From the IMG/VR virus record IMGVR_UViG_3300037067_001739, positions 32,001-96,000 of that record: a stretch of DNA of 64,000 bases. The stretch is one strand, 5' to 3'. This document shows, piece by piece, positions 604 through 20,163 of the stretch (positions are counted from its first letter, which is position 1; every line of letters starts with the position of its first letter). The position numbers were made by a program, and so were the translations under genes. The DNA comes from a virus. Its lineage: Duplodnaviria > Caudoviricetes. A model generated the notes under the pieces. That model had not been told where the DNA came from and made no database searches. It was given only the letters and a program-made list of their open reading frames with translations.

Positions 604-678
604 GGGGTTATCGTCTAAGGGTCAGGACGGCACTCCCTCGAAGTGCGAATATCGGTTCGAATCCGTTTAACCCTACCA
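604..678 (+). tRNA. tRNA-Glu(CTC)
   Basis: GCACT-CCCTCGA-AGTGC (C33), CCA end. Confidence 0.9.
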
Positions 679-680
679 AA

Positions 681-866
681 ATGGATAATGATAAACTTAT
701 AGAAGAAGTGTGCAAGGTTGAAAATCCTTATGAGTATTCTCAAGGAATGTGGTATGAACCACTACAAGGTTATTTGATGACTCATGAGACAGCAGAAGAG
801 AATTCGGCACATATTGCTTTTGAAGAGTGTCGAGATTTGATTTTGCTTTTGTTAGCGGGAGCGTAG
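681..866 (+). CDS. hypothetical protein (61 aa)
   Basis: ATG 2 nt after tRNA-Glu CCA; stop TAG lies inside tRNA-Ile. Confidence 0.6.
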   Translation: MDNDKLIEEVCKVENPYEYSQGMWYEPLQGYLMTHETAEENSAHIAFEECRDLILLLLAGA

Positions 867-952
867 CACAATTGGCAGTGCAACCGTCTTATAAGCGGTA
901 TTAGGGGCTGATTTCCCCAAGGTTATAGGTTCGAGTCCTATCGCTCCTACCA
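857..952 (+). tRNA. tRNA-Ile(TAT) with long variable arm
   Basis: ACCGT-CTTATAA-GCGGT, extra arm GGGG..CCCC, CCA end. Confidence 0.88.
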
Positions 953-953
953 G

Positions 954-1208
954 ATGAAAGTGACACTTGATTTTCCTGTAATGCACGACAGATGTAACAC
1001 TTGTGAGCACAGATTTGCGTGCTGGACAAGGAAAGTACATGTGGAATTGGATTTAACATATGGAGATGGAAGTTATCATACAATGATACAACCCTTCATC
1101 TTCGGTTTGGATTGCTTTAGACTAGAACCTTGGTCAAGGGTCAGAAATATAAAGCTTGACATCCTTCCAGACGGTACTTCGATGGTGTTAGATTTGTTTG
1201 CAGTATAA
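954..1208 (+). CDS. Cys-motif protein, unknown function
   Basis: CNTCEHRFACWT. Confidence 0.75.
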   Translation: MKVTLDFPVMHDRCNTCEHRFACWTRKVHVELDLTYGDGSYHTMIQPFIFGLDCFRLEPWSRVRNIKLDILPDGTSMVLDLFAV

Positions 1209-1286
1209 CTCCCTATAGCTCAATTGGACAAGAGCGTGTGGCTACGAACCACAAGGTTGCGGGTTCAAGTCCTGCTAGGGAGACCA
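1209..1286 (+). tRNA. tRNA-Arg(ACG)
   Basis: TGTGG-CTACGAA-CCACA, CCA end. Confidence 0.95.
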
Positions 1287-1738
1287 TGAGTGCTAAATCA
1301 AAAGCTAATGGTCATGATATAGTTTACAATGGCAAGGATTGGGTTTACTTGGATAACGGTGAAGTTGTTGACGTAAGACCGTGTGCTCGTTGTGGTGCTA
1401 AACCAGTAGCAGTTAAGGTCAAAATACCAGCCGATTTATCACACACTGGAAAAGAGTTTTGGAAGTACGCTCAAATAGACGCTTGTATTGCTCCCATCGT
1501 TAAAGCGTTACAAGATGCTGGTATAGATATGAGAGGTTCTTGTTGTGGACATGGTAGGGGAGTTGGTGATATAGAACTTCAAGATGGTCGTGCTGTTGTT
1601 ATCCTCAATCCAGAGCAAGCACATACTTTTTATGTTAAGAATGCCCTCGTAGCTGAATTGGAACAGCCGCTCGCTTCTAACGAGAAGAATGAGAGTTCGA
1701 GTCTCTCCGAGGGTGCCAGGGTGGAACTTCGTAGCTGA
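1286..1738 (+). CDS. hypothetical Cys-rich protein; reads through tRNA-Arg(TCT)
   Basis: ATG overlaps the A of the tRNA CCA; CARC and IDACIAPIVKAL..GSCCGHG motifs. Confidence 0.7.
   Translation: MSAKSKANGHDIVYNGKDWVYLDNGEVVDVRPCARCGAKPVAVKVKIPADLSHTGKEFWKYAQIDACIAPIVKALQDAGIDMRGSCCGHGRGVGDIELQDGRAVVILNPEQAHTFYVKNALVAELEQPLASNEKNESSSLSEGARVELRS
1643..1718 (+). tRNA. tRNA-Arg(TCT)
   Basis: loop CTTCTAA, GTTCGAGTC, GCCA end. Confidence 0.9.
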
Positions 1739-1836
1739 CCCGCAACGTGTTGTACGCACGTTTGTTTACGGCACGTGAACATAGTGAAAAAAGTATTAAC
1801 GAATGTGTTAATACGAGGTCAGAGCGTTAAGTACCC
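1719..1836 (+). ncRNA. unclassified multi-hairpin RNA candidate
   Basis: CTGACC/GGTCAG closing three hairpins (AACGTG/CACGTT, TGTTTACG/CGTGAACA, GTATTAAC/GTTAATAC). Confidence 0.45.
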
Positions 1837-1841
1837 TTTAT

Positions 1842-1921
1842 CTCGCTGTAGTCGGGGGAATTTCCTAAATTCTCATCCGTAAGTGGAACTGTAAATGCGA
1901 GTTCAAGCCTCGCCAGCGAGT
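1842..1921 (+). ncRNA. D-armless tRNA-like RNA, apparent anticodon CCT
   Basis: CTCGCTG/CAGCGAG acceptor, GGGAAT-TTCCTAA-ATTCTC arm, T arm GCGAG-TTCAAGC-CTCGC. Confidence 0.55.
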
Positions 1922-2032
1922 CGGGGGATGGGTACAGCCGATGAAAAGGTAAAAAACGGCAATTGATGAATGTCATGCAATACGGGTACGCCTCCACCAT
2001 CGGACTAAGTATGAAATTGGAATAGATTTTTT

Positions 2033-2109
2033 GCGGGTGTAGCCGAATTGGCATAGGCAACAGGTTTAGACCCTGAAATCTGGAAGTTCGAGTCTTCCCA
2101 CCCGCACCA
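2033..2109 (+). tRNA. tRNA-Leu(TAG), short variable loop
   Basis: loop TTTAGAC, A73, CCA end. Confidence 0.9.
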
Positions 2110-2115
2110 TATGAT

Positions 2116-2517
2116 ATGTTTCTGTACATTGCAGTTGATGACAGGACGATAAAAAGCACTTGGAATTGGGACTTTGAGGGTTGCAATTCTTGTCCGCATA
2201 GATTTGAGTGCTACACAGAAGACAGTGCTACTATAAAGCCTGTCAAAGTAGATGAGTGGGAAGCAGATAGCTACCTATATTCTCGCAATTATAAGGCTGA
2301 GTTTCATCTACCAAAATGTATACGAGCAGGGCTATTTAAGCAGATAGCGGATACTGGATATTGGAAAAGCAGTTATCCAACGGATTTCGGTGACGGCTTC
2401 AAGTTAGGTGGAGTGTTTAGTGATGAAGGTGAGCACGTTACAGTTGAGCGTGCGTGGGTAAAGTTTCCTAGCACTCTTTATGTCACTGGCTTAAAGAGAA
2501 AGGTGCGTTGGTGTTAA
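2116..2517 (+). CDS. Cys-motif protein, unknown function
   Basis: CNSCPHRFECYT; stop inside tRNA-Asp. Confidence 0.75.
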   Translation: MFLYIAVDDRTIKSTWNWDFEGCNSCPHRFECYTEDSATIKPVKVDEWEADSYLYSRNYKAEFHLPKCIRAGLFKQIADTGYWKSSYPTDFGDGFKLGGVFSDEGEHVTVERAWVKFPSTLYVTGLKRKVRWC

Positions 2518-2577
2518 TGGTGAGCATACTACCCTGTCAAGGTTGAGGGAGGGGTTCGTGTCCCCTACGCACCGCCA
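2502..2577 (+). tRNA. tRNA-Asp(GTC)
   Basis: loop CTGTCAA, GCCA end. Confidence 0.92.
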
Positions 2578-2870
2578 TGAAAAAGATAATAGCGTATACT
2601 GATGACGACAAACCCTTTGGTGATAGTCCAGAGGATTATCTAGACTATGAGCTACGTGTCATAGACAGAAGGGTAAGGATTGAAAACAAAGAGCGCAAAG
2701 ATAAAGCAACTACTACTATAGAAGGTGCTGTACAAGCGGCTCAGAGATACATGTTTTCGAGTCCTAAAGAATTCCCTATGACTGATACTCTGTTTATGGC
2801 GGAATGCAAACGAAGAAAGGTCGGTGATTGTAGTATCTGTAAACTCAGATTTAGGTGTTGGACAGAATGA
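2577..2870 (+). CDS. Cys-motif protein, unknown function
   Basis: C-terminal CSICKLRFRCWT; ATG overlaps tRNA CCA. Confidence 0.75.
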   Translation: MKKIIAYTDDDKPFGDSPEDYLDYELRVIDRRVRIENKERKDKATTTIEGAVQAAQRYMFSSPKEFPMTDTLFMAECKRRKVGDCSICKLRFRCWTE

Positions 2871-2953
2871 TTATTGATGTTCTTGTAGTGTCGTTATTTT
2901 TATTAATGCTTGGTGGTTCTGTTTGGTGTGCAACAAAATGGGATGTGCATTAA

Positions 2954-3026
2954 GGCATCGTGGTCGAGTGGCTAAGGCGAGCGTCTGCAAAACGCTTTTA
3001 CGTGGGTTCAATTCCCACCGATGCCT
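2954..3026 (+). tRNA. tRNA-Cys(GCA), no encoded CCA
   Basis: AGCGT-CTGCAAA-ACGCT, U73. Confidence 0.95.
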
Positions 3027-3027
3027 C

Positions 3028-3429
3028 ATGAATACAAAAGATATAGGTGATATTACTCAAGCTAAACTAGAACTAAAATTGTTGCTACAAGGTTACGTAG
3101 TATTGACCCCACGTGGTGATAATCTTAGATACGACTTTGTTATTGAGCGTAATGGTAACTTTGATAGAGTTCAGTGTAAGACTGGACGTTACAGAAAAGG
3201 ATGTGTGGTATTTGATACTCGTTCTTCTAGTTGGCACAGAGACGGTAAGAAAGAACCGTATAATAAATATCAGATAGATTTCTTTGGAGTATATTGTCCT
3301 CAGTTGGATAGTTATTACTTGATACCTGTTGAGGATATTGGTGATAAATACCAGTGTAACTTGCGGGTTGATGAACCGAGGAAGAAAAATAATCGTTATA
3401 TTTGGGCAAAAAATTATATTCTGGTGTAG
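3028..3429 (+). CDS. PD-(D/E)XK endonuclease, I-Ssp6803I / group I intron-associated type, free-standing
   Basis: GDITQ..PRGDNLRYDFVIE..RVQCKTG..IDFFGVY pattern. Confidence 0.8.
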   Translation: MNTKDIGDITQAKLELKLLLQGYVVLTPRGDNLRYDFVIERNGNFDRVQCKTGRYRKGCVVFDTRSSSWHRDGKKEPYNKYQIDFFGVYCPQLDSYYLIPVEDIGDKYQCNLRVDEPRKKNNRYIWAKNYILV

Positions 3430-3495
3430 TTCAATCGGTAGAGCAGGCGGCTGTTAACCGTCAAGTTGATGGTTCGAGACCATCCACCAGAGCCA
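3420..3495 (+). tRNA. tRNA-Asn(GTT)
   Basis: loop CTGTTAA, GCCA end. Confidence 0.95.
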
Positions 3496-3665
3496 TGCAG
3501 AGAATAAAGATTCCTGAGTCTAGCTACTTTGTCTATTGTAATGACAAGTGCGAGACGTGCGAGGTCAGATTCAGGTGTTTCACCAGTCGTGAAATGCTTG
3601 TTGTTGATTTACCTACAGCAAAAAGGATAGTCGAGTCTGAATATATGGATTGGTTAATTAGGTAG
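3495..3665 (+). CDS. Cys-motif protein (56 aa)
   Basis: CNDKCETCEVRFRCFT; ATG overlaps tRNA CCA. Confidence 0.72.
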   Translation: MQRIKIPESSYFVYCNDKCETCEVRFRCFTSREMLVVDLPTAKRIVESEYMDWLIR

Positions 3666-3668
3666 TAT

Positions 3669-3743
3669 GGCGGTATCTGCTAATGGTCAGGCAAGCAGGC
3701 TTTCAACCTGGAAACGGGGGTTCAATTCCCCCTACCGCTACCA
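3669..3743 (+). tRNA. tRNA-Glu(TTC)
   Basis: loop CTTTCAA, CCA end. Confidence 0.92.
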
Positions 3744-3744
3744 T

Positions 3745-3862
3745 GCTGTCGTTAATTGGGCAAAGCTAAAGATATTGACGTTACGCTCTTTGCATATGAG
3801 GCTGTACACTGATTATGTAAAGCTGAATATCTTGGTAATTGGGTTCGACTCCCAACGGCGGA
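3745..3862 (+). ncRNA. tRNA-like RNA with a long helix and insert replacing the anticodon arm
   Basis: T arm TTGGG-TTCGACT-CCCAA, CTGTCG/CGGCGG acceptor, AAGATATT/AATATCTT helix around about 50 nt. Confidence 0.55.
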
Positions 3863-3864
3863 AC

Positions 3865-3938
3865 AGCGGTGGAGAATCGGTATTCAAGATGCTCTCATAA
3901 GGCATCCTTCGAGGGTTCGACTCCCTTCCCCGCAACCA
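3865..3938 (+). tRNA. tRNA-Met(CAT), initiator-like
   Basis: loop CTCATAA, 1:72 mismatch, CCCGCAACCA end; lacks the three G-C anticodon-stem pairs. Confidence 0.8.
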
Positions 3939-3939
3939 T

Positions 3940-4013
3940 TTCCCTGTAGTGTAGTGGTAGCACGCAACGCTCTGAACGTTGTAATTCTGGTTCGAGTCCA
4001 GACAGGGGAGCCA
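3940..4013 (+). tRNA. tRNA-Gln(CTG)
   Basis: CAACG-CTCTGAA-CGTTG, GCCA end. Confidence 0.93.
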
Positions 4014-4015
4014 AG

Positions 4016-4333
4016 ATGATACCAAGAAGGATAATGCTAAAAGGCAAAACTGGACACAACGAATATATGTGTTCGGGGTCTTCTTGTGATACTTGTAAAC
4101 TCAGATTTGAATGCTTTACTGAGGATAGAGAACATATACTTTGGTTAGAGTGGGATGAGCTTCACGCAAAGTATAGAGGAATCAGTCCTTCAAGAGTATT
4201 GAGAGACATAATCGGTAGTAAAGTTTGGGTTGAGGGTAGCAGAAGGTTCAGAGAAAATATGGAAAAGGCAAGGAGCTTGCTTCCATCTGAACAGCGTGAT
4301 ATTAGAGTTCAACATTTATTAAGGGAGCTATAG
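4016..4333 (+). CDS. Cys-motif protein, unknown function
   Basis: CSGSSCDTCKLRFECFT; stop inside tRNA-Leu(AAG). Confidence 0.75.
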   Translation: MIPRRIMLKGKTGHNEYMCSGSSCDTCKLRFECFTEDREHILWLEWDELHAKYRGISPSRVLRDIIGSKVWVEGSRRFRENMEKARSLLPSEQRDIRVQHLLREL

Positions 4334-4397
4334 CCCAACTGGCAGAGGTAACTGGCTAAGAACCAGTACAGTAAGAGTTCGAATCTCTTTAGCTCCA
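4324..4397 (+). tRNA. tRNA-Leu(AAG), short variable loop, no CCA
   Basis: ACTGG-CTAAGAA-CCAGT. Confidence 0.9.
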
Positions 4398-4399
4398 CA

Positions 4400-4821
4400 A
4401 GCAAGCAGGACGAGTGAACGCTCTACGGAGAGGAAAGTCCGAACACCTTTGAGCAAGATGCAGGGTAACACCCTGGCAGAGTAATCTGACGATTAGAGCA
4501 ACAGAGACGAGTTGAGATGGACGAAAAAGAGTTAGAAGAAGAACTTCGTAAGCGTAGTGCGTTTTATGAATTGGGATACCAAATTGAACAGTTCAAAAAC
4601 ACACTTCGTAGCGAGTTTGAAAAACTCTTTAAGTTTATACTCAAGTGAAACGGGCAATCTCCATCTGGTGCAACACCAAACAGAAGGCGATGCTAGGTCG
4701 TAATGGACTAAGCGGGATGCGCTCAACGTAGTCTTCGGGTAGGTGGCAAGGAACTTAGCAGTAATGTTAAGTCAAGTCAAATGTTCACATAGACAGAATT
4801 CGGCTTACAGTCCAGCTTGCT
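4400..4821 (+). ncRNA. rnpB: RNase P RNA (bacterial type, lacking P13/P14, enlarged P12)
   Basis: GAGGAAAGTCCG and ACAGAATTCGGCTTA P4 signatures, P1 AGCAAGC/GCTTGCT, GCAACAGAGA, GTGAAACGG, P18 with GTAA loop. Confidence 0.95.
4517..4648 (+). CDS. putative 43-aa ORF embedded in RNase P RNA P12
   Basis: ATG..TGA, MDEKELEEELRKRSAFYELGYQIEQFKNTLRSEFEKLFKFILK, spans the P12 insert. Confidence 0.5.
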   Translation: MDEKELEEELRKRSAFYELGYQIEQFKNTLRSEFEKLFKFILK

Positions 4822-4825
4822 ACAT

Positions 4826-4900
4826 GGTGGTGTTGGTCTATAGGTATGACGGTTGGTTGTGACCCAGCCAAAATGGGTTCGATTCCCATACACCACCCCA
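4826..4900 (+). tRNA. tRNA-His(GTG)
   Basis: G-1, C73, loop TTGTGAC, CCA. Confidence 0.93.
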
Positions 4901-4902
4901 TA

Positions 4903-5346
4903 ATGATAAAAGAATTTCAGAGTGAGAATAGGTTTCTCTCCAATTTTTGGTTCTGCAATGGTGTAACTCTTGATGGTAAGAATTACCCATCTGTAGAGCA
5001 CGCATACCAAGCGGCAAAGACACTTGACGATAAGCAGAGAGAGGCAATTCGAACTGCGAAAACACCAGGAGAAGCCAAGAAGCTTGGCAAATCAGTAACG
5101 ATACGACCTGATTGGGAAGACGTAAAGATTGATGTAATGTACGGTTTGCTTAAACAGAAATTTAGCGAGAGCAACCCATTGTTACTGAAAAAGCTGAAGG
5201 ACACTGGCAATCAGGTGTTGCAAGAGGGTAATTATTGGTATGATACCTTTTGGGGAGTTGACCTAAGAACTGGTAAGGGACAAAATAACTTGGGTAAATT
5301 GCTCATGAAAGTAAGGGATTCATATGAGAATAATGCTCAAAAGTAA
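4903..5346 (+). CDS. NADAR (YbiA-like) family protein
   Basis: FLSNFW, SVEHAYQAAK, WEDVKIDVM, DTFWG, GQNNLGKLLMKVR. Confidence 0.92.
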   Translation: MIKEFQSENRFLSNFWFCNGVTLDGKNYPSVEHAYQAAKTLDDKQREAIRTAKTPGEAKKLGKSVTIRPDWEDVKIDVMYGLLKQKFSESNPLLLKKLKDTGNQVLQEGNYWYDTFWGVDLRTGKGQNNLGKLLMKVRDSYENNAQK

Positions 5347-5647
5347 AATTCACCATATCAAAGTTACTAACGTAGCACCGAATTACGAAGGTAGCATAGC
5401 TATTGACGGTGGGCTTCTTTCCAGAGCCGATATTCTTGAGTACGAACAGGTTCATGTTCTTGACCTGACTAATGGCAACCGCTTCATAACCTACGCTATT
5501 GAAGGTGATAAAGATGAGTGTAGCGTTAATGGTGCGGCGGCTCGATTGGTGAATGTTGGTGATGTTCTAATAATTATGGCATTCTCTATACTAAATGATG
5601 GGGCATCATACGAATTGAAACCCCGCATTGTGGTGTGCGATGGATAA
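5324..5647 (+). CDS. panD: aspartate 1-decarboxylase
   Basis: MLKSKIH..YEGSIAID..NGNRFITYAI..NGAAAR. Confidence 0.93.
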   Translation: MRIMLKSKIHHIKVTNVAPNYEGSIAIDGGLLSRADILEYEQVHVLDLTNGNRFITYAIEGDKDECSVNGAAARLVNVGDVLIIMAFSILNDGASYELKPRIVVCDG

Positions 5648-5819
5648 CCAACTACAGTCTCACCTGTTAAAAGCTTCTATTCAGATGGAAGTAGAAGAAC
5701 TTCTAGAGGGAAAATCAGAGGAATTTAAGGAAGCTTTCTACTTGGGGTTACAATACGGTGTAGAGATACAGAAGGCTTTTCTTGATTTATACTTCGGTAA
5801 AAGCGGGCGAAATTCATAA
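5640..5819 (+). CDS. hypothetical protein
   Basis: overlaps the panD stop; stop inside tRNA-Gly. Confidence 0.55.
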   Translation: MDNQLQSHLLKASIQMEVEELLEGKSEEFKEAFYLGLQYGVEIQKAFLDLYFGKSGRNS

Positions 5820-5878
5820 GGTTGAATGCTGGCTTGCCAAGTCAGACGTAGCGAGTTCAAATCTCGCCGCTCGCTCCA
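5803..5878 (+). tRNA. tRNA-Gly(GCC)
   Basis: CTGGC-TTGCCAA-GTCAG, TCCA end. Confidence 0.92.
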
Positions 5879-5897
5879 AATGGCAATTTACTTAGGC

Positions 5898-5926
5898 TTG
5901 ACTTTGTAAGTGGCATTGTGTATAAT
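5898..5926 (+). promoter_or_regulatory. sigma70-type promoter
   Basis: GGC-TTGACT-17 bp-TATAAT. Confidence 0.75.
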
Positions 5927-6299
5927 AAGGGTGACAGTGGATATAATTGTTGACCAGAATGATGTAGTTTATCGGTACAGGTGCAACGAACAATGTGACG
6001 CTTGTTCAATTAGATACATATGTTATACGAACAAGAATGTAAATGGTGTGGTGCATCTGAGAGGGCAATCCTATTCTGACCTGTTAATGCTTCGTACCAG
6101 ATTGGATTCTCTGATAACTTCACAAGAAGTGTTGTGCTCCTTGTGTTACAGACATGAGCATAAGATAGTGGCACGACCATTAGGTGAGAAGTGTCCAGAG
6201 TGTGGTCACTATATCACTTGTGAAAAGTGTGAAGCTAGTAATTGCAGTTTTCGTGGTGATGGATATAACACAAGCGGAGATTGCATAATGGAAAAGTAA
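5910..6299 (+). CDS. Cys-motif / zinc-finger protein (true start probably downstream of the promoter)
   Basis: CNEQCDACSIRYICYT plus CPEC and CEKC. Confidence 0.7.
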   Translation: MALCIIRVTVDIIVDQNDVVYRYRCNEQCDACSIRYICYTNKNVNGVVHLRGQSYSDLLMLRTRLDSLITSQEVLCSLCYRHEHKIVARPLGEKCPECGHYITCEKCEASNCSFRGDGYNTSGDCIMEK

Positions 6300-6301
6300 T
6301 T

Positions 6302-6378
6302 GCTGGTATAGCCCAATAGGCAGAGGTATCAAGCTCAAACCTTGATTAGTGCTAGTTCGAATCTAGCTACCAGCACCA
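6302..6378 (+). tRNA. tRNA-Leu(CAA), short variable loop
   Basis: TCAAG-CTCAAAC-CTTGA, CCA. Confidence 0.9.
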
Positions 6379-6400
6379 ATGAGATATATTACGGTATAAT

Positions 6401-6478
6401 GGGAGTGTAGCTTAACGGTATTAGAGCCTCCGTCTCCAAAACGGCAAGATGAGAGTTCGAATCTTTCCACTCCTGCCA
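6401..6478 (+). tRNA. tRNA-Trp(CCA)
   Basis: loop CTCCAAA, GCCA end. Confidence 0.93.
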
Positions 6479-6514
6479 AATCTCCAGTCTTCAAATATAA
6501 TTAGAGGGGATGTT

Positions 6515-6835
6515 ATGCGTGGTGCTAGACTTTGGCGAGCTATTAGAAAAGCGGAACGTGTTTTTAAGAAGTATGAAGGTTTTAATCCACGAAATGAAAA
6601 ACAAAGTGGATTTTATCGTAGCAATAGATGGACAAAGGACGAGATAAATAGAATCGTAGGAATCTACCGCAAAACAAAAGTTCCATGTTCTTGTTTTATG
6701 TGCGGTAATCCTAGAAGACATTGGGGATATTTACCAATAAGAGAGGTACGACAGCACTTGAACGCCGATTCGCAGTATGATGAAATCGGTTGGAATCATA
6801 GAAAACATAGATGGTTAAGAGGATGGTTAGAATAG
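6515..6835 (+). CDS. basic hypothetical protein
   Basis: SD GAGGGG upstream; CSCFMCGNPRR motif. Confidence 0.65.
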   Translation: MRGARLWRAIRKAERVFKKYEGFNPRNEKQSGFYRSNRWTKDEINRIVGIYRKTKVPCSCFMCGNPRRHWGYLPIREVRQHLNADSQYDEIGWNHRKHRWLRGWLE

Positions 6836-7179
6836 CAGAGGTTGATTTGAGTAAAGAGTATGCTCATAAGTATTATCTAGAACATAAAGAAAAGATAATA
6901 GCAAATGCACGTAAGAATGAAAGAATTTATGAGACAAGAGTGCGTGGGTTTATACGAGATTATTTATCAGCACATCCTTGTGTAGATTGCGGCGAGGCAG
7001 ACATAGTTGTCCTTGATTTTGACCACATTGATGGCACTAAAGAAATGTCTGTTTCTCAGATGATTAGATGGGGGTTTTCATTAGACAGGATAAAAGCTGA
7101 GATTGCTAAATGTGAGGTTCGTTGCTCTAACTGTCATAGAAAACGGCACGCAATTGAACGAGGTTTTTGGCGAGTATGA
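6811..7179 (+). CDS. HNH-type endonuclease
   Basis: CVDCGE..LDFDH..CEVRCSNCHRKRH. Confidence 0.8.
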   Translation: MVKRMVRIAEVDLSKEYAHKYYLEHKEKIIANARKNERIYETRVRGFIRDYLSAHPCVDCGEADIVVLDFDHIDGTKEMSVSQMIRWGFSLDRIKAEIAKCEVRCSNCHRKRHAIERGFWRV

Positions 7180-7245
7180 TGCAACATAGGCAGACATACC
7201 TCTCTTAAAAAGAGGTTTTTGGAAGTTCGAATCTTCTTGCTCGCA
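7170..7245 (+). tRNA. tRNA-Leu(TAA), short variable loop, no CCA
   Basis: CCTCT-CTTAAAA-AGAGG. Confidence 0.88.
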
Positions 7246-7267
7246 CAATTATAGCCATAGAAAAGGC

Positions 7268-7296
7268 TTGACATTAGGTTAGGCTCATGCTATAAT
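7268..7296 (+). promoter_or_regulatory. sigma70-type promoter
   Basis: TTGACA-17 bp (GGCTCATGC)-TATAAT. Confidence 0.85.
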
Positions 7297-7333
7297 AGGT
7301 ATAGTTAGAAACTATAGAAGGAAAGGAAAGGAC

Positions 7334-7708
7334 ATGACTGCTAAAAAATTCGGACTTGAGGAACTTGGGAAGTATGAAGCTGAGGTCGGGTTTAAGAAGA
7401 GTGATGTACGCACGATTAAAGGGGTCTGCGCTATTGTAGACCTTCCGATGACAGTCGTACCAGAAGCAAAGGAAATCATTTCTACGCTGAATGGTAACGT
7501 TGTTGCGGCACAGGGTAAGATTGCGGAAATCGAGACTGCTGAAGCAAAAGCGGAGCAAGTCCTGAAGGAGAGCATCGCAAAGATGAAGTCCGACAGAGAG
7601 ACTGCTAAAGCAACCAATAAGCTTGAAATCAACACGCAGAAGAAAGTACAAGGTAGCTTCAATAGCGAAGTAGCACGCTTGGAAAAACTTCTAAAGAATT
7701 TTTCCTAA
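7334..7708 (+). CDS. coiled-coil hypothetical protein
   Basis: SD AAGGA, own promoter, E/K/A-rich helical C-terminal half. Confidence 0.75.
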   Translation: MTAKKFGLEELGKYEAEVGFKKSDVRTIKGVCAIVDLPMTVVPEAKEIISTLNGNVVAAQGKIAEIETAEAKAEQVLKESIAKMKSDRETAKATNKLEINTQKKVQGSFNSEVARLEKLLKNFS

Positions 7709-7714
7709 CATCGG

Positions 7715-7874
7715 CTGAGTACGGTGGATTTGCCTAACTAGCCCTTGGGAGTATCCTTGAGGCTAAAGGGATAACTAGGCAGAAGGGGGAAAATCTAACC
7801 AGTTTGAGTGAACTGTGACCATCCCTTAGTGGCATGGTATCCGCTGTGGAAGGTAGACAGTCAACTGTACTCAG
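7715..7874 (+). ncRNA. unclassified structured RNA candidate (160 nt)
   Basis: terminal helix CTGAGTACGGT/ACTGTACTCAG, inner TAGCC/GGCTA and AAGGGAT/ATCCCTT. Confidence 0.55.
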
Positions 7875-7878
7875 AAAT

Positions 7879-7951
7879 GCCGAGGTAGCTCCAACGGTAG
7901 AGCGACAGATTGAAACTCTGTGCGTTAGAAGTTCAAATCTTCTTCTCGGCA
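7879..7951 (+). tRNA. tRNA-Phe(GAA), no full CCA
   Basis: ACAGA-TTGAAAC-TCTGT. Confidence 0.93.
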
Positions 7952-7952
7952 C

Positions 7953-8306
7953 ATGGAATGTAAACTCTGTGGAAGAGTATTAAAAGGTAGTAGAAGAAAA
8001 CGCTGTAATTCTTGTAACACTAAGATAAGAAGATACAGAGCAAAGAAAGCCGCCGTTGCTTACTTGGGTAGTAAATGTAACAGGTGCGGTTGGTGTGGTA
8101 ATATTGCGGGATTTGACTTTCATCACAGAGGTGATAAAGATTTTAATATCGGTAATGTAGCTAATAAGAGTTGGGAAATTATAAAACAAGAATTGGATAA
8201 GTGTGAGTTATTGTGTGCTAATTGCCATAGGATAGAACACTCAGACAATTCTTCTGAAGCATTTCTAATTGAGGTAAACAACTATAAAGGTAAACTATTA
8301 GTATAA
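7953..8306 (+). CDS. HNH-type endonuclease
   Basis: CNRCGW..FDFHH..CELLCANCHRIEH. Confidence 0.8.
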   Translation: MECKLCGRVLKGSRRKRCNSCNTKIRRYRAKKAAVAYLGSKCNRCGWCGNIAGFDFHHRGDKDFNIGNVANKSWEIIKQELDKCELLCANCHRIEHSDNSSEAFLIEVNNYKGKLLV

Positions 8307-8307
8307 T

Positions 8308-8396
8308 GGGTTAGCGGCAAAGTTGGAGAGTTGCCCTCGTCTGTAAAACGAGTGTCCTTAGCGGCTGAGTAGGTTCGACTCCTATCTAACCCACCA
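8308..8396 (+). tRNA. tRNA-Tyr(GTA)
   Basis: CTCGT-CTGTAAA-ACGAG, long variable arm, CCA. Confidence 0.95.
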
Positions 8397-8527
8397 TGAA
8401 ATGTAGCTGTGGTGAAGAAGCAAAATATGTAAAGAAACCGCTAATCGGCAAGAAGCAGTATCTATGTATTTATTGTGTGGTTGCTTCTTTGAATGGTTGT
8501 GCTTTAATAGAGCCAATAGATGATTGA
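8396..8527 (+). CDS. small zinc-finger-like protein (43 aa)
   Basis: ATG overlaps tRNA CCA; MKCSCG..LCIYC. Confidence 0.5.
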   Translation: MKCSCGEEAKYVKKPLIGKKQYLCIYCVVASLNGCALIEPIDD

Positions 8528-8795
8528 TAAACTAATACAACCGAAGCGACTATATTGTACCGTTTGTGACGTATTATTATTGCCAGACTTCAATTTGAGT
8601 TGTCCAGTGTGCGGCACAACATTGACTACTTGTTGGTGGGCTTTGTTGAATAGAAAAACCAAGGTCAAAGAGCATTGTAAGGATTGTCAGAATAGATTCT
8701 GGTGTTGGACACATAAAGCGGGTGACGAAAAGCGACTCCCGACAGTCACACAGGCACAGATAGTCCAGAATGCTAAATTTGGTGAAAAACAATGA
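8520..8795 (+). CDS. zinc ribbon + Cys-motif protein
   Basis: CTVC..CPVC, CKDCQNRFWCWT. Confidence 0.75.
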   Translation: MIDKLIQPKRLYCTVCDVLLLPDFNLSCPVCGTTLTTCWWALLNRKTKVKEHCKDCQNRFWCWTHKAGDEKRLPTVTQAQIVQNAKFGEKQ

Positions 8796-8965
8796 GCGAA
8801 GAAACAGTAGGCATGAAGAAAGTGAACGGAGAATGGATTAAGATTGTCCGTGTGTTTTGCCCCAAGTGTGGAAAAGAAAGACTAGAGATAACTGCCGATG
8901 GTAAATATAAATGTGTAGCTTGTGGTACTGAATTTACTAAAGGTAGAGAAAGACTAGAAAACTAA
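8792..8965 (+). CDS. small zinc-ribbon protein (57 aa)
   Basis: ATGA overlap; CPKCG..YKCVACG. Confidence 0.6.
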   Translation: MSEETVGMKKVNGEWIKIVRVFCPKCGKERLEITADGKYKCVACGTEFTKGRERLEN

Positions 8966-8967
8966 TT

Positions 8968-9041
8968 GGGGGCTTAGTTCAGTGGGAGAACAATTCCCCT
9001 GCAAGGAATAAAGACGAGTTCGAGTCTCGTAGCCTCCACCA
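8968..9041 (+). tRNA. tRNA-Ala(TGC)
   Basis: G3:U70, loop CCTGCAA, ACCA. Confidence 0.92.
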
Positions 9042-9081
9042 AGTGACAGAGTTCAGAGGTTTCTGAGTGATGCACAATTTT

Positions 9082-9154
9082 ACGGGAATAGCTCAGTGCA
9101 GAGCGTCAGATAGTGCTTCTGAAGGCAGTGGTTGAACTCCACTTTCCCGTACCA
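9082..9154 (+). tRNA. atypical tRNA (loop TAGTGCT, nominal anticodon GTG)
   Basis: all four stems intact plus ACCA, but A33 and T loop TTGAACT. Confidence 0.55.
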
Positions 9155-9226
9155 TGAAGAACGAGGCGTCATTACACGCCTACAAGTCACTTATACTTCC
9201 ACAGTCACCTTCGGGTGCTGTGCGGT

Positions 9227-9304
9227 GCAGTAAAGACGGTGGAATTCCGTATAGTAGACAAGCGCATCTACTGTGAGTTAGAGCTTCACATTCTCACATA
9301 CTGC
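9227..9304 (+). ncRNA. four-way-junction RNA candidate
   Basis: GCAGTA/TACTGC closing ACGG/CCGT, AGTAGA/TCTACT and GTGAG/CTCAC. Confidence 0.4.
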
Positions 9305-9309
9305 GTCAT

Positions 9310-9385
9310 CGGAGTGTAGCTCAGTTGGTTCTAGAGCACATCGTTTGGGGCGATGGGGTCGGTGGTTCAAGTCCACTCACTCCGA
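9310..9385 (+). tRNA. tRNA-Pro(TGG), no CCA
   Basis: CATCG-TTTGGGG-CGATG. Confidence 0.95.
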
Positions 9386-9387
9386 CA

Positions 9388-9472
9388 GGGTTGAGCGTGG
9401 TAAGTAGGAAAGCCCGAATAAGAGACCGAAAGGTTTCGGAATGCTGAAAACGGCATTCAACCATAGCAACCC
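9388..9472 (+). ncRNA. unclassified structured RNA candidate
   Basis: GGGTTG/CAACCC closing a GAAA-tetraloop hairpin and GAATGCTG/CGGCATTC. Confidence 0.45.
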
Positions 9473-9478
9473 ACTTCT

Positions 9479-9536
9479 TGGGCTGTACCTATGGTTAGGT
9501 GATGCGCATAACGGGTTCGAATCCCGTACAGTCCAC
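9479..9536 (+). ncRNA. anticodon-less mini tRNA-like RNA
   Basis: TGGGCTGT/ACAGTCCA stem, ACCT/AGGT D-like arm, ACGGG-TTCGAAT-CCCGT; only 10 nt where the anticodon arm should be. Confidence 0.6.
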
Positions 9537-9669
9537 ACACTTAGTAGGCTTTGGGGAAAAGTGTTGCGAAGATTGATGTATAGATAGAAGATATTTTTCT
9601 GTCTGAGTCTTCAATCGAATGTATTACGATTTTTAAGGGATAATACCCAAAGATATTACTCCCTTATTT

Positions 9670-9746
9670 CAGGGTGTATTGTCAATTGGTAGACGGCGTG
9701 CTTTGGAGGCATGAGGTTACGAGTTCGACTCTCGTCACCCTGACCA
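9670..9746 (+). tRNA. tRNA-Pro(TGG), second divergent copy
   Basis: CGTGC-TTTGGAG-GCATG, CCA. Confidence 0.9.
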
Positions 9747-9970
9747 TGAAATATTACTGCTTTGAATGCCAGACGGTATTCGCACATGGCAGTGAAACTA
9801 GGGTTGTTGGGTCTGGTGTCCAGACACGACACTATTGTCCCACTTGCGGCGCACTTGTTCGTAGTTGCGTAAACATCATACGAAGCATTGGTAAATTTCC
9901 ACCAGAATTTGATGCGGCAGATTGCGATAAGTGTCACTGGAGATTTAGGTGTTTCACTGGTGGATGGTAA
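9746..9970 (+). CDS. zinc ribbon + Cys-motif protein
   Basis: ATG overlaps CCA; CFEC..CPTC; C-terminal CDKCHWRFRCFT. Confidence 0.75.
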   Translation: MKYYCFECQTVFAHGSETRVVGSGVQTRHYCPTCGALVRSCVNIIRSIGKFPPEFDAADCDKCHWRFRCFTGGW

Positions 9971-10402
9971 ATTTGAGTATTGGGGGTTAACATGATTATT
10001 ATATGGGAACAGAATGACGCTGAAAAAATTACTCCTGGCGTAGTGCTCGGATTTGTTGAAACTGATGAAGAATTTAAGATAGCCGCTCTAGAGCTTATGA
10101 GTCAGGGCAAAAAGATACTAGCTGGTGACGTGACTCCTATTACTATAAAATACGTTCCCGCAGACGTAACGCTAGATAGACTTATAACGAAGGTTTAATA
10201 TGGAACGTTACGAGAGGCGTGAAAAGAAGCTTGAGTCCAAACGTAATAAGATGAAGAAACATGGCAGAAACATCGGAATCATTTACAAAAACGCTCTTGA
10301 CAAAAGAGCCACTAATTAGAAAAGCTTATCGTAGCCTTAATAAAAAGTACAAGATTATAAAGCGTGAAATTAGAGAACGTATTAAACATGACCACGCTAC
10401 AT

Positions 10403-10475
10403 GCCGCTGAAGCTCATCAGGATGAGCGATGGTTTTGTAAACCATAGGCAACGGGTTCGAATCCTGTCAGCGGCT
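10403..10475 (+). tRNA. tRNA-Thr(TGT), no CCA
   Basis: ATGGT-TTTGTAA-ACCAT. Confidence 0.92.
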
Positions 10476-10489
10476 CGTAAGGGGGATAA

Positions 10490-10693
10490 ATGGAAGAAGA
10501 TTACATGAATGTCTGCTGTCCTTTCCTTGACATAGCTGATTGTGAAGACACTGATGAGCATGGTCACCTTTATTGTACAACAAATGGTGACTTTATGAAT
10601 TTTGGTATGACACACAAGTATTGCGTTTCGGAAGATTGGGAGAAGTGTCCTCATTTCATGGCTTACCCCATTCAAATCCCCTTTACAGAATAG
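10490..10693 (+). CDS. small Cys-rich protein
   Basis: SD AAGGGGG; CCPF..YC..YC..KCPHF. Confidence 0.6.
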   Translation: MEEDYMNVCCPFLDIADCEDTDEHGHLYCTTNGDFMNFGMTHKYCVSEDWEKCPHFMAYPIQIPFTE

Positions 10694-10765
10694 CCACCAA
10701 AGCTTATGAGGATAAGCAGTTGTTTCGTAAACAACAGATAGTGAGTTCGAATCTCGCTGGTGGCT
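10693..10765 (+). tRNA. tRNA-Thr(CGT), no full CCA
   Basis: GTTGT-TTCGTAA-ACAAC. Confidence 0.9.
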
Positions 10766-10766
10766 C

Positions 10767-11234
10767 ATGAATAAAGGTTGGGTTGAACCAGAGAAGTATA
10801 ACGAAATTTGTAAACTGATTCCTATTGTTGCCGTAGATGTTGCGGTATTTCATGGCGACAGGTTGCTCTTACTAAAGAGACAGATGCCACCGATACAAGA
10901 TACTTGGTGTCTTCCAGGTGGCGGAATTAGGTTAGGTGAGAATCCGTACATGACGGCTTCACGTGAGCTTGAAGAAGAGACTGGCATCAAAACTCTTAAT
11001 TTCGTTCAGGTTGGCAGTGCAGTCACGTACCTATTTGACTTCAAACAGAATGTCGGACTTGGTATGATAACCAAGGTGGATAACCCAACTGAAGTTATCA
11101 TGGATGGTGAGCACAGTGATTATGGTTGGTTCAATATTTTCGACCTTCCAGAACCGATAGACGAGCAGATGATGGCTCAAATCAAGAGTTGTATTTGCGC
11201 ATATCATGAAAAAGGGTGGATGTTGGATGCTTGA
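10767..11234 (+). CDS. NUDIX hydrolase (GDP-mannose hydrolase-like N-terminus)
   Basis: PGGGIRLGENPYMTASRELEEETGI Nudix box. Confidence 0.9.
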   Translation: MNKGWVEPEKYNEICKLIPIVAVDVAVFHGDRLLLLKRQMPPIQDTWCLPGGGIRLGENPYMTASRELEEETGIKTLNFVQVGSAVTYLFDFKQNVGLGMITKVDNPTEVIMDGEHSDYGWFNIFDLPEPIDEQMMAQIKSCICAYHEKGWMLDA

Positions 11235-11636: not shown

Positions 11637-11729
11637 TAGTAGAGTTGCCTCAGTGATAAGGGCGAAGTCTGGAGACACGGTTTGTCATGTTGGTTCGAGT
11701 CCAACTCAGATGGTATCATAACTCTACTA
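11637..11729 (+). ncRNA. tRNA-like RNA with 10-bp closing stem
   Basis: TAGTAGAGTT/AACTCTACTA, GCCT/GGGC D-like arm, GTTGG-TTCGAGT-CCAAC. Confidence 0.5.
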
Positions 11730-13494: not shown

Positions 13495-13740
13495 TTATTT
13501 AATGGTTGAGGTTTTATCCTCTGGGGGACTGCATCTTTCTTTCTCATCAACTTCCTCTTTTACTACACCGTAATAACGTTTAGCCCATGCTTGCTCTGTT
13601 GTCATAGCACGTTTGACCTCATCAAAGGAAGTCGCTTTCTTTATACTGTTCCTCAGTTCGAGTAACCTGTCTAAAGAAGAATCAACGTATCCCTTGATGA
13701 AGTCGTTCTTGAACTGCTCTAACGCCTTATCGTCTGCCAT
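13495..13740 (-). CDS. hypothetical protein
   Basis: ORF coupled to the CCA enzyme gene. Confidence 0.55.
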   Translation of the reverse strand: MADDKALEQFKNDFIKGYVDSSLDRLLELRNSIKKATSFDEVKRAMTTEQAWAKRYYGVVKEEVDEKERCSPPEDKTSTIK

Positions 13741-15076
13741 CTATGTACTCCCTTGCCTTAGCGAAAGCACCCTCTCTGTCATCCTTATCCAACTTGTCAT
13801 CAATGACCAGATTGGTCAGGTGATTCTTGATTTCACCAACAAACTTTCCAGGCTTTAGTGAGAATTCGTTCATGATTTCATTACCGTCAATAGGGGAAGC
13901 TAGAGACTCTGGTTCTTCCGCCAAGCACTCGCTCACCATCTTGGTTAGGATGGTCATGAACTTATAGCGTGGGTTCTTAGAAGAGCGAATATCACACTTT
14001 ACCAAGTCCATTAGTAGTCCGATATTATCTTCACCAACTCTACGTACTAGACGCATGATGATTCTCTTCTTAATCTTACCCCTGACAATTTCTCTCTGTA
14101 GAACGATAGGAGTCATGTGATACTTAATCAAATGACAAACGCTCTGAACAGTTTCATTATCGTAACGTAGTCTGCGTAGAAGCTTTCTAGCCTTTCTAGC
14201 ACCCACGTTGTGGTGGGAGTAGAAATGAACACCACTCTCATCTTCTATCTTGGTTTCAGGCTTACCGATGTCGTGCAAGATACAAGCTAGACGGAAGATT
14301 AGGTTTCTGTCACCCTGCTCAATCTTAGAACCCTTGTGTAGAACCAACAGAGAATGCTCGTAAGCATCCTTGATGTGATTCTTACCCTGCTGGATGTTCT
14401 TCAAGTCCATGAACTCAGGTACGATGTAGTAAATCAGTCCAGTCTGACACAACTTTCTCCAACCGTAAGAAGCTCTGCTAGACAACAGGATTCTGTTCAG
14501 TTCCTCACGGATTCTTTCCTTAGATACTATCTGTAGTCTCTCAGGATGTTCAATCTTTACGTCAAGAGTGAAGCCAAGCTCGCAGGCAAAACGTACTGCA
14601 CGAAGCATTCTTAGAGGGTCTTCGTCAAATCTTTCGTTTCCACCTACTACCTTAATCAATCTATTGTTCATATCAATCAAACCACCAAACGGGTCAACTA
14701 CAGTTCCAGTCAATGGGTCACGAGCGATGGCATTGATAGTGAAGTCTCTGCGAGACAAGTCCTCTACCAAGCTATCACCAAACACGACCTCTGGCTTACG
14801 AGAATTGGAAGGGTAAACTTCCTTTCTGTAAGAAGTCACTTCAACGGTGACACCCTTAACGTTAAGACCAATAGTACCAAATGCTTCACCCATTGCATAG
14901 ATAGCACCCAAGTCATTTAGAAGTTCCTTTATCTTAGTTGGGTGGGCATTAGTTGCTAGGTCAATATCGTGAGACTTTCTATTAAGGAAAGAATCACGGA
15001 CATGACCACCAACTTCGTACAGTTCAAGTCCTTCGTTCTTGAATCTTTCAGCTATAGTCTTTATCAATTCTTCCAT
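13727..15076 (-). CDS. cca: CCA tRNA nucleotidyltransferase with HD domain
   Basis: VGGHVRD, DIDLAT, DLSRRDFTINA, EDPLRMLRAVRF, LHDIGKP. Confidence 0.95.
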   Translation of the reverse strand: MEELIKTIAERFKNEGLELYEVGGHVRDSFLNRKSHDIDLATNAHPTKIKELLNDLGAIYAMGEAFGTIGLNVKGVTVEVTSYRKEVYPSNSRKPEVVFGDSLVEDLSRRDFTINAIARDPLTGTVVDPFGGLIDMNNRLIKVVGGNERFDEDPLRMLRAVRFACELGFTLDVKIEHPERLQIVSKERIREELNRILLSSRASYGWRKLCQTGLIYYIVPEFMDLKNIQQGKNHIKDAYEHSLLVLHKGSKIEQGDRNLIFRLACILHDIGKPETKIEDESGVHFYSHHNVGARKARKLLRRLRYDNETVQSVCHLIKYHMTPIVLQREIVRGKIKKRIIMRLVRRVGEDNIGLLMDLVKCDIRSSKNPRYKFMTILTKMVSECLAEEPESLASPIDGNEIMNEFSLKPGKFVGEIKNHLTNLVIDDKLDKDDREGAFAKAREYIDGRR

Positions 15077-15082
15077 ACCTCT

Positions 15083-15111
15083 ATATTAGCACATTTCCTT
15101 TCATTTGTCAA
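15083..15111 (-). promoter_or_regulatory. sigma70-type promoter, leaderless geometry for cca
   Basis: TTGACA-17-TAATAT, 6 nt to ATG. Confidence 0.7.
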
Positions 15112-16681: not shown

Positions 16682-17095
16682 TTATACTTTACAGTCATCT
16701 GCATTCCTCCATCCGTCAGGAAATAATTTTATCTGCTTCTTATAGCATTCGAGACATAATACTTTGTCTTGTAGTGGTGGGATTACGTACTTTTCCCAAT
16801 CTTCATCTATAAACATATCAGGAAATACTTCGCCACAAAGAGCACACAACACAGGTATCTGAACCCAAGGAATTCTGCCCTTACGTTCTAGCATTTCTTC
16901 CCATTGTTCCTCTTGTCTCTCAGTTAAGCCATGCTCGTATGCCCAAGTTCCCTCGGACACATCAACATTTAGTAGTTCGTAGCAACAACCACAGCTTATG
17001 AGTTGCCCACCACAGAAGGGACAACGTTCCATATCACAGCCTAGAGCATGATACTCACCCTCTTTTGCACCACAATCATGACATGTCTTATCCAA
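16682..17095 (-). CDS. Cys-rich hypothetical protein
   Basis: [27 protein letters not shown]. Confidence 0.7.
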
Positions 17096-17564
17096 AGGCT
17101 AAGTTCCCCTTTTCTGACGCTGTGCTTACTTTAGGACTTACAAGTATCCCTTTCTTATCAATAAGGATACCGTCAAGGTGGTCTACTTCATGCTCTGCCA
17201 CGCTAGATTCCTCTGGTGTTTTGCACTTTAATTTGACAGGTCTACCATGAGAGTCAGTTCCAAAGAGCGTTAATGTCTGCGGTCTGGTTACTTGATAAAC
17301 ACCATCTACACTCAGACAACCCTCGAACATCTTTACTGCACCTTTCTTGTGCTGGATGTAGGGATTGAATATTGTATACTCTTTGCCACGATATACGATG
17401 TTTATAATCCTCACAGACTGACCTATCTGTGGTGCGGCAAGACCGATACCACCATTCTCCTGTCTGACCCTTGACATTTCCTCAGTAATATTGGTCAGGT
17501 CAAGTTTGGTGGTGGCGGGTACTGCTTTCTGTCTTAATCTTTTATCTGGTAATTTAATTAACAT
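17088..17564 (-). CDS. def: peptide deformylase
   Basis: [23 protein letters not shown]. Confidence 0.95.
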
Positions 17565-19654: not shown

Positions 19655-20163
19655 TACTTTGTCTCCAACAGTTGCAATACCATTTTCCTGAAATACTCTT
19701 GACCATCTGGATATAAATACCCATCTGTAGTCTCATCTTCACAACTCTTTATATTTTGTCTATAATCTTCTGCATGTTTGACTTCCATCAGTACCTTGTT
19801 CATACGAGCCTGTATCTGCTTGTAGTCCATTTCTACTGCTATCCATTCGGCATCAGGTTGAGGATTACCAGCAGTCCAGCATTTGAACCTTTGGTTACAC
19901 TTATCACAGTTCTTAAACTCGACTTCCTTTTCCTTTATTCGGCACTGCTCAAATTTCCATTCGTCAGTATTCTTTTTTATAAAGTAATCTCTAGCTGTAC
20001 CTTTTGGTACATTAGAGATATTCGGATGCTTGCCAGAAAGTCTACCAGTTACCGTTCCTACGTGAGTATCGGACAGTACAAGTATAGTATTTTCTGGAAT
20101 GTCCTCACTTACCAATATCGGTAAATTTTTTATCACAAGAGCGTTCTCCGAATGACTCAACAA
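19654..20163 (-). CDS. Cys-motif protein
   Basis: CDKCNQRFKCWT; start uncertain. Confidence 0.65.
   Translation of the reverse strand: MLSHSENALVIKNLPILVSEDIPENTILVLSDTHVGTVTGRLSGKHPNISNVPKGTARDYFIKKNTDEWKFEQCRIKEKEVEFKNCDKCNQRFKCWTAGNPQPDAEWIAVEMDYKQIQARMNKVLMEVKHAEDYRQNIKSCEDETTDGYLYPDGQEYFRKMVLQLLETK

Follow-up and report, generated by a model that had tools for sequence, protein, structure and literature searches.

In animal mitochondria, transcripts are reportedly divided by tRNA punctuation, as described by Ojala, Montoya and Attardi in 1981. In these polycistronic units, coding regions lie flush with tRNA genes and no promoter stands between them. Translation starts at or near a tRNA 3′ end without a 5′ untranslated region (UTR) or Shine-Dalgarno (SD) sequence. 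Excision of the tRNAs by RNase P and RNase Z sets the mRNA ends and yields leaderless mRNAs, and CCA is added to the tRNAs post-transcriptionally. Here we describe a similar layout in the tRNA array of a phage. The analysis covers a 64,000-nucleotide stretch of DNA (the window), which corresponds to bases 32001-96000 of a phage genome record of 134,397 bp. Genes for DNA polymerase, primase, helicase and tail proteins identify its source as a tailed phage. An earlier note on this stretch had pointed to start codons fused to tRNA 3′ ends and had likened them to mitochondrial punctuation.

The phage array shares with mitochondria the flush packing of coding regions and tRNA genes, the lack of promoters between them, and the start codons at or near tRNA 3′ ends without a 5′ UTR or SD. 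The excision of tRNAs to form leaderless mRNAs, with later addition of CCA, is predicted here. Unlike their mitochondrial counterparts, which end in U or UA and are completed by poly(A), the stop codons of the phage are complete and often lie within the next tRNA. In addition, CCA is encoded by most of the phage tRNA genes, with its A frequently forming part of the ATG. SD-led genes also occur within the same array, and the phage infects an SD-using bacterium.

A second comparison is provided by the t-elements of plant mitochondria, where tRNA shapes likewise act in cis to direct the RNase Z or RNase P cuts that form 5′ or 3′ ends of mRNAs (Forner et al. 2007, PMC1920247). However, t-elements only mimic tRNAs and do not function as such, and the mRNAs they delimit keep their leaders (PMC1920247), whereas the phage array consists of genuine decoding tRNAs with the start codon at the proposed cut. 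Bacterial leaderless mRNAs, such as lambda cI and those of Caulobacter, Actinobacteria and Deinococcus, resemble the phage ORFs (open reading frames) in lacking an SD and in strongly preferring AUG (PMC8459731, PMC9031893, PMC3848588), and the phage, like these systems, also has promoters of leaderless geometry. Known leaderless mRNAs nevertheless start at a 5′-terminal AUG whose end is set by transcription initiation, while in the phage it would be set by cleavage. A cleavage origin of leaderless mRNA has so far been put forward for MazF alone, and this proposal is disputed (PMC9031893).

Among phages, T5 also has ORFs, including HNH nucleases, among its tRNAs, and in hegC, hegD, T5.069 and T5.057 the stop codon reaches into the 5′ portion of the tRNA that follows. 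Unlike in the present phage, none of 23 T5 tRNAs abuts an ORF. The T5 ORFs instead start 13-34 nt past the tRNA end, most of them behind an SD-like motif. This spacing corresponds to d = 15-38, where d counts from the discriminator to the first start-codon base. The discriminator itself was located in each tRNA from the 7-bp acceptor pairing. In phiCbK, which was examined as a control, 0 of 26 tRNAs abut an ORF. Because the relatives of the present phage share its layout while T5 and phiCbK lack it, this comparison with other phage tRNA arrays, which the earlier note had suggested, indicates a feature specific to some lineages. Phage T4 has small ORFs and homing nucleases between its tRNA genes, and maturation of its CCA-less tRNAs depends on RNase BN and on the addition of CCA. 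No published description of the layout in phages was found among open-access papers and preprints.

Start codons abutting tRNA 3′ ends

The array comprises 37 tRNA genes identified by ARAGORN and Rfam, all on one strand, extending from window position -5927 to 12599. Eight of them lack an encoded CCA. Behind 15 of the 37, an ORF of at least 40 amino acids (aa) begins with an ATG at d = 2-6, with three cases at d = 2, eight at d = 3, one at d = 5 and three at d = 6. The gap is roomy enough for an ORF of this length after 28 of the tRNAs. Relative to a background in the arrays of 0.0056 such ATGs per position, and with d = 1-7 as the range tested, abutment in this phage has a binomial p of 3e-12. 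The earlier note had proposed a comparison of ATG frequency with a shuffled null; measured against the background rate, tRNA 3′ ends stand far above chance. Abutting ATGs that do not open an ORF (3743, 5880 and 6379) occur at approximately the chance background.

The stretch was found only in DNA contigs, from groundwater and landfill metagenomes, and in no RNA record. Megablast against deposited phages gave no near match, and a search of cultured-phage proteins with the CCA-adding enzyme encoded beside the array returned only matches below 38% identity and no close relative. However, searching with the same enzyme identified five IMG/VR phages at 63-79% identity, each of which carries the enzyme gene beside a tRNA array whose order matches that of the present phage. 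One relative (G002) is a near duplicate of another (G004) and was left out of the counts, which therefore concern 153 tRNAs from five phages.

Across these five phages, 65 of the 153 tRNAs abut an ATG that opens an ORF of at least 40 aa at d = 1-7, where about 6 are expected (p = 1e-49). The counts at successive values of d from 1 to 7 are 1, 8, 28, 6, 9, 12 and 1. No such ATG lies within any of the tRNAs and almost none occurs at d = 8-10, beyond which a second spacing class appears at d = 11-23. Counting all starts at d of 7 or less (n = 66), 65 are ATG and one is GTG. The observation is therefore confirmed, is highly non-random and is common to the clade, and it proves stronger than the earlier note had stated.

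The junctions of the window, all on the + strand, differ in how the ATG meets the CCA. In one class the ATG shares the A of an encoded CCA. This class includes tRNA-Arg(ACG) (1209-1286) with a 150-aa ORF (1286-1738), tRNA-Asp (2502-2577) with a 97-aa ORF (2577-2870), tRNA-Asn (3420-3495) with a 56-aa ORF (3495-3665), tRNA-Tyr (8308-8396) with a 43-aa Cys-rich ORF (8396-8527), and tRNA-Pro (9670-9746) with a 74-aa zinc-ribbon-like ORF (9746-9970) that has CxxC at residues 5-8. The frame of the 150-aa ORF is open across the entire tRNA-Arg(UCU) gene (1643-1718), such that its final ~30 codons are tRNA sequence. Beyond these examples, which were already listed in the earlier note, the A is shared at 9154, behind a second tRNA-His (9082-9154), and, ahead of the window, at -5854 and -328. 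It is doubtful that the 40-aa ORF starting at 9154 (9154-9276) is a real gene.

In another class the tRNA gene lacks CCA, and the discriminator is followed by a single C and then the ATG. Here tRNA-Cys (2954-3027) precedes a PD-(D/E)XK nuclease gene (3028-3429), tRNA-Phe (7879-7952) precedes a 117-aa ORF (7953-8306), and tRNA-Thr(CGU) (10693-10766) precedes a Nudix hydrolase gene (10767-11234; Pfam NUDIX, E 1.4e-17). The 117-aa ORF has CxxC at residues 3-6 and appears HNH-like by eye, with no Pfam match.

Finally, the ATG may lie just past the CCA. The distance is 2 nt (d = 6) between tRNA-Glu(CUC) (604-678) and a 61-aa ORF (681-866), the stop codon of which falls at positions 8-10 of the next tRNA. 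It is 1 nt between that tRNA, tRNA-Ile(UAU) (857-952), and an 84-aa ORF (954-1208), whose stop codon abuts the tRNA that follows; this ORF carries a Cys motif described below, and its orthologue in the relative G005 aligns from residue 1. A 2-nt distance is also seen between tRNA-Gln(CUG) (3940-4013), whose acceptor stem happens to contain GGGGAG, and a 105-aa ORF (4016-4333), and between tRNA-His (4827-4900) and a NADAR-domain gene (4903-5346). All of the junctions that the earlier note had assigned to these three classes hold when examined with ARAGORN, Rfam and a check of the sequence.

Two other junctions provide a contrast. The 133-aa ORF (2116-2517) that follows tRNA-Leu(UAG) (2033-2109) is an intermediate case, with d = 10 and no SD, and its orthologues are located at d = 14-16. 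The 67-aa ORF (10490-10693) that follows tRNA-Thr(UGU) (10403-10476) is SD-led at d = 15, with a 13-nt spacer that carries AAGGGGGA.

Several tRNA-like elements of the array have unusual forms. The tRNA-Ile(UAU) gene measures 96 nt, including an extra arm of ~20 nt; it has equal length in G001, whereas G004 has a 74-nt form. Between both tRNA-Lys genes, Rfam reports a 101-nt tRNA (187-287; 41.6 bits) that has no ARAGORN call and resembles a tRNA carrying an insertion of ~28 nt. Three further segments (3744-3864, 9429-9535 and 11640-11715) end in a T-arm-like GGTTCGA..TCC without a tRNA call, and these may be degenerate tRNAs or tRNA mimics.

Start sites and Shine-Dalgarno sequences

Several comparisons indicate that the abutting ATGs are true starts. 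The protein encoded at 3028-3429 matches the Pfam PDDEXK_5 profile from its first position (profile 1-135 versus residues 1-130, E 1.4e-37), and the protein encoded at 4903-5346 matches the NADAR profile in a similar manner (profile 7-161 versus residues 6-140, E 8.5e-27). Orthologues in related phages also align from residue 1, including cases in which one copy is SD-led. For example, the gene behind tRNA-Met has a 20-nt SD-bearing spacer in the present phage (d = 21) and zero spacer in G001 (d = 1). Likewise, the PD-(D/E)XK gene lies at d = 2 behind tRNA-Cys here, but is SD-led at d = 15 behind tRNA-Arg in G003. In addition, eight otherwise unrelated inter-tRNA ORFs, starting at 954, 2116, 2577, 3495, 4016, 5937, 8520 and 9746, each carry one CxxCxx(R)(F/Y)xC[WFY]T motif. 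Its site can be N-terminal, internal or C-terminal and its codons vary among the eight ORFs, which shows that the frames are coding.

The earlier note had recognized that its proposal would fail if the proteins began at downstream SD-led codons, in which case the abutting ATGs would be coincidental. A search of the first third of the 65 abutting ORFs yielded an in-frame SD-like start in six, all of them weak candidates, and none in the other 59. Together with the profile and orthologue alignments from residue 1, this makes downstream starts highly improbable. Moreover, two of the ORFs already have CxxC within residues 3-8, and ORF-opening ATGs account fully for the excess of ATG at d = 1-7.

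An SD motif precedes the first ATG of 60% of 161 strand-coherent ORFs of at least 100 aa, compared with 18% of internal control ATGs, which indicates that the phage and its host use SD sequences. The rate at the 65 abutting starts is only 12%, close to the 8% seen at tRNA 3′ ends without an ORF. The earlier note had seen no room for an SD outside the tRNA, and the tRNA bases ahead of these starts have no SD signal either. The SD-positive abutting starts belong to Arg and Gln tRNAs, which have G-rich acceptor stems. Apart from these, the possibility that an SD is hidden inside the tRNA was considered and rejected. Among junctions at d = 8-25, 10 of 22 are SD-positive by motif, and in the class at d = 11-23 about half (~45% by motif) have an SD, clear examples being AAGGAG and AGGAGG.

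Turnover of ORFs between tRNAs

The order of the tRNAs is conserved in the clade, while the ORFs between them differ. The 88 junction ORFs of the clade form 68 families, of which 54 are singletons. One gene lies against tRNA-Met at d = 3 in G004 but against tRNA-Asn at d = 6 in G005, with residues 1-118 aligned to 1-117. The zinc-ribbon-like ORF at 9746-9970 has a G003 orthologue of 72% identity, aligned over residues 1-74, with an identical junction. For one pair of tRNA-Trp and ORF, the junction is G-CC-ATG in G003 but G-C-ATG in G004, so that ATG adjacency is retained while the encoded CCA is not. In landfill contigs of related strains, inter-tRNA ORFs are deleted or replaced with breakpoints located exactly at tRNA borders, and the cassette joints fall at 3495/3667, 3027/3399, 4014/4324, 6747/7169 and 11373/11548. 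At the first of these, the ORF at 3495-3665 is missing and position 3495 is joined to 3667 via 9 other bases. Taken together, these comparisons show that inheritance does not explain the pattern, and that the layout has been kept or recreated across the clade.

Such turnover offers an explanation of its own. Abutment could be a by-product of cassette exchange and tight packing, wherein the tRNAs serve as recombination anchors, many of the ORFs are selfish nucleases or small accessory genes, and expression is weak and incidental. The precise deletion and replacement of cassettes between tRNAs of conserved order, together with the HNH-like and PD-(D/E)XK nucleases among the ORFs, would be expected under such a process. 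However, it leaves unexplained the accumulation of starts at d = 2-6, the avoidance of d = 8-10 and the usage of ATG. Housekeeping-type enzymes (Nudix and NADAR) use the identical junction, and T5 has nuclease cassettes in its tRNA region yet retains the longer, mostly SD-bearing spacers noted above. Furthermore, the frame-specific Cys motifs and the orthologues of 46-72% identity indicate that the proteins are under selection. We therefore consider it improbable that turnover alone accounts for the junctions.

Proposed expression of the abutting ORFs and maturation of the tRNAs

On the + strand, a consensus sigma-70-type promoter is located just upstream of tRNA-Lys (73-101), and strong sigma-70-type promoters are present within the array at 5898-5926 and 7268-7296. 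No + strand sigma-70-type match of 11-12 of 12 positions occurs in 604-5878, and none of the tRNA-ORF junctions coincides with the end of a sigma-70-type match. The lack of junction promoters indicates that the abutting ORFs are co-transcribed with their tRNAs. We also considered promoters inside the tRNAs that would start transcription at the ATG. This was rejected because no sigma-70-type match is present at the junctions and the T-loop, ~15 nt upstream, is too far away.

The best-supported reading, to which we give about an even chance, is that tRNA excision makes near-leaderless mRNAs that lack an SD. Under this proposal, transcription of the array would yield long precursors of the form tRNA-ORF-tRNA. 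The folded tRNA would be recognized by a host endonuclease, which would cut at or just past the discriminator, or inside or after the CCA. Candidates for this role include an RNase Z/BN-like enzyme or an activity like that of P. acnes, which cuts within CCA; in that organism, mapping has placed cuts between the two encoded Cs of CCA (PMC3848588). One cut would both free the tRNA and create the 5′-monophosphate end of the downstream mRNA. The leader before the AUG would be 0-6 nt if the cut follows N73, or 0-3 nt if it follows the CCA, the latter being feasible only at d of at least 4. The cut mRNA, devoid of an SD, would then be translated by the leaderless, 5′-end-dependent route. AUG is strongly preferred in leaderless initiation (PMC8459731), and the 65 ATG starts among 66 fit this preference.

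A structural consideration points in the same direction. Based on the established structure of the ribosome, a folded tRNA 1-6 nt before the AUG should block the path that upstream mRNA takes on the 30S subunit, and a cut at the tRNA 3′ end would then be the simplest route to translation. We infer the cut, its position and the translation of its product from the genome sequences.

Junctions of the CCATG type, the commonest class, would place a special demand on processing. There, a cut before A76 would be needed to keep the AUG, and the tRNA would subsequently need CCA repair. Presumably, the phage CCA-adding enzyme would complete tRNAs cut short of the CCA as well as those from CCA-less genes, while a phage RNase P RNA would assist the 5′ cuts. 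The processing-dependent switch suggested in the earlier note is plausible only in this setting, since its logic requires a CCATG junction.

Promoters elsewhere in the genome have a bearing on the leaderless route. The earlier note had identified two promoters of leaderless geometry (15083 and 63874), and both have the expected spacing. On the - strand, the promoter of the CCA-adding enzyme gene has TTGACA, 17 nt, TAATAT and then 6 nt before the ATG at 15076, and the second has TTGACA, 17 nt, TAGAAT and 7 nt before an ATG near 63866. Promoters of this geometry within the window have their -35 boxes at 15111, 29787, 50566 and 63902, all on the - strand. Genome-wide, eight strong promoters have an ATG 4-9 nt past the -10 box, where ~1.5 are expected, and this geometry hints that the host translates leaderless mRNAs.

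Several observations weigh against the excision model. The geometry of the CCA-enzyme promoter is not kept in the relatives. Each extra 5′ nucleotide approximately halves leaderless translation in Caulobacter, and a single one is inhibitory in E. coli (PMC8459731), while no single cut position yields a 0-nt leader at all junctions across d = 1-7. Folding of the first 30 nt does not clearly set the abutting ORFs apart from SD-led genes, with a mean minimum free energy over +1 to +30 of -2.0 kcal/mol for abutting and -2.3 for SD-led ORFs (p = 0.59). More generally, a distinct 5′ coding signature (low structure or A-richness) was looked for in the abutting ORFs and none was found. Profile searches likewise revealed no RNase Z (PF12706) and no RnpA encoded by the phage.

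The stop codons present a further difficulty. Among 29 gaps in which an abutting ORF ends at the next tRNA or within 30 nt of it, the stop codon falls inside that tRNA in 17, and seven of these stops occupy tRNA positions 8-10. An RNase P cut would therefore leave non-stop mRNAs, and such borrowed stops require that translation precede the downstream cut, with some of it occurring on the precursor. For example, a cut at 856/857 would leave an mRNA ending in ...GC without a stop, and only the stop at 10691-10693 would become UA. Completion of stops by poly(A) was considered and rejected because the stops are complete. The 3′ side of the ORFs is thus ordinary tight packing and not stop completion of the mitochondrial kind. 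The parallel with mitochondrial tRNA processing drawn in the earlier note is consequently supported in part: on the 5′ side it is consistent with true starts, the lack of SD sequences and junction promoters, conservation in the clade and the presence of a CCA-adding enzyme, but it does not extend to the stop codons, which are complete and often lie inside the next tRNA.

These borrowed stops, together with the frame that reads through tRNA-Arg(UCU), need RNA that is at least partly unprocessed, and they raise the possibility that the ORFs are translated from the uncut tRNA-mRNA precursor. In that case the AUG, located in the sole single-stranded stretch, would be chosen by accessibility without an SD. 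In a variant of this scheme, the tRNA might protect the 5′ end or sterically replace the SD helix. SD-independent start selection based on accessibility is an established idea, and short leaders make poor leaderless substrates (PMC8459731). T5 also has equivalent borrowed stops. On the other hand, a folded tRNA 1-6 nt from the AUG would, judging from the 30S structure, fill the space of the E site and mRNA exit channel. The near-exclusive use of ATG and the two spacing classes fit 5′-end-dependent initiation better, and the clade devotes a gene to CCA repair. Translation of the uncut precursor is therefore a possible but rather unlikely alternative to excision.

Two genes near the junctions are relevant to maturation of the tRNAs by the proposed excision. 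An RNase P RNA of bacterial class A (4402-4823, + strand; Rfam RF00010, 175.6 bits, E 1.1e-55) sits between tRNA-Leu(AAG) and tRNA-His. It exceeds the model length by ~55 nt, contains a 43-aa ORF (4517-4648), and is found likewise in G001 and G003 and weakly in G005. The CCA-adding enzyme gene (13727-15076, - strand) was assigned by Pfam, NCBIfam and synteny. It encodes a nucleotidyltransferase head and an HD domain, and it adjoins the tRNA array in all six phages. Its best NCBIfam model is the actinobacterial type TIGR02692 at 327.8 bits, below the cut-off of 438.8, and this match is a possible lead to the origin of the enzyme or to the host. Other genes of the window, all on the - strand, include those for peptide deformylase (17088-17564), adenylosuccinate synthetase (20105-21346) and RtcB (61594-62751).

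In a more ambitious model, the RNase P RNA and the CCA-adding enzyme would act with a host 3′ endonuclease as a self-contained, mitochondrion-style system that produces both tRNAs and leaderless mRNAs. At CCATG junctions, the choice of cutting before or after A76 would decide between message and tRNA. We regard this extended model as unlikely, but if it is correct, expression of accessory genes would be tied to tRNA-processing capacity.

For annotation, gene callers that require an SD or that bar overlap with tRNAs will miss or truncate the abutting genes. If excision does generate the mRNAs, tRNA punctuation would not be a peculiarity of organelles, but a general means of gene expression that needs neither promoters nor ribosome-binding sites. 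It would also provide natural leaderless mRNAs generated by processing in bacteria, so far claimed only for the disputed case of MazF. Finally, it would give large phage tRNA arrays a second role and would account for the CCA-adding enzymes and RNase P RNA of such phages.

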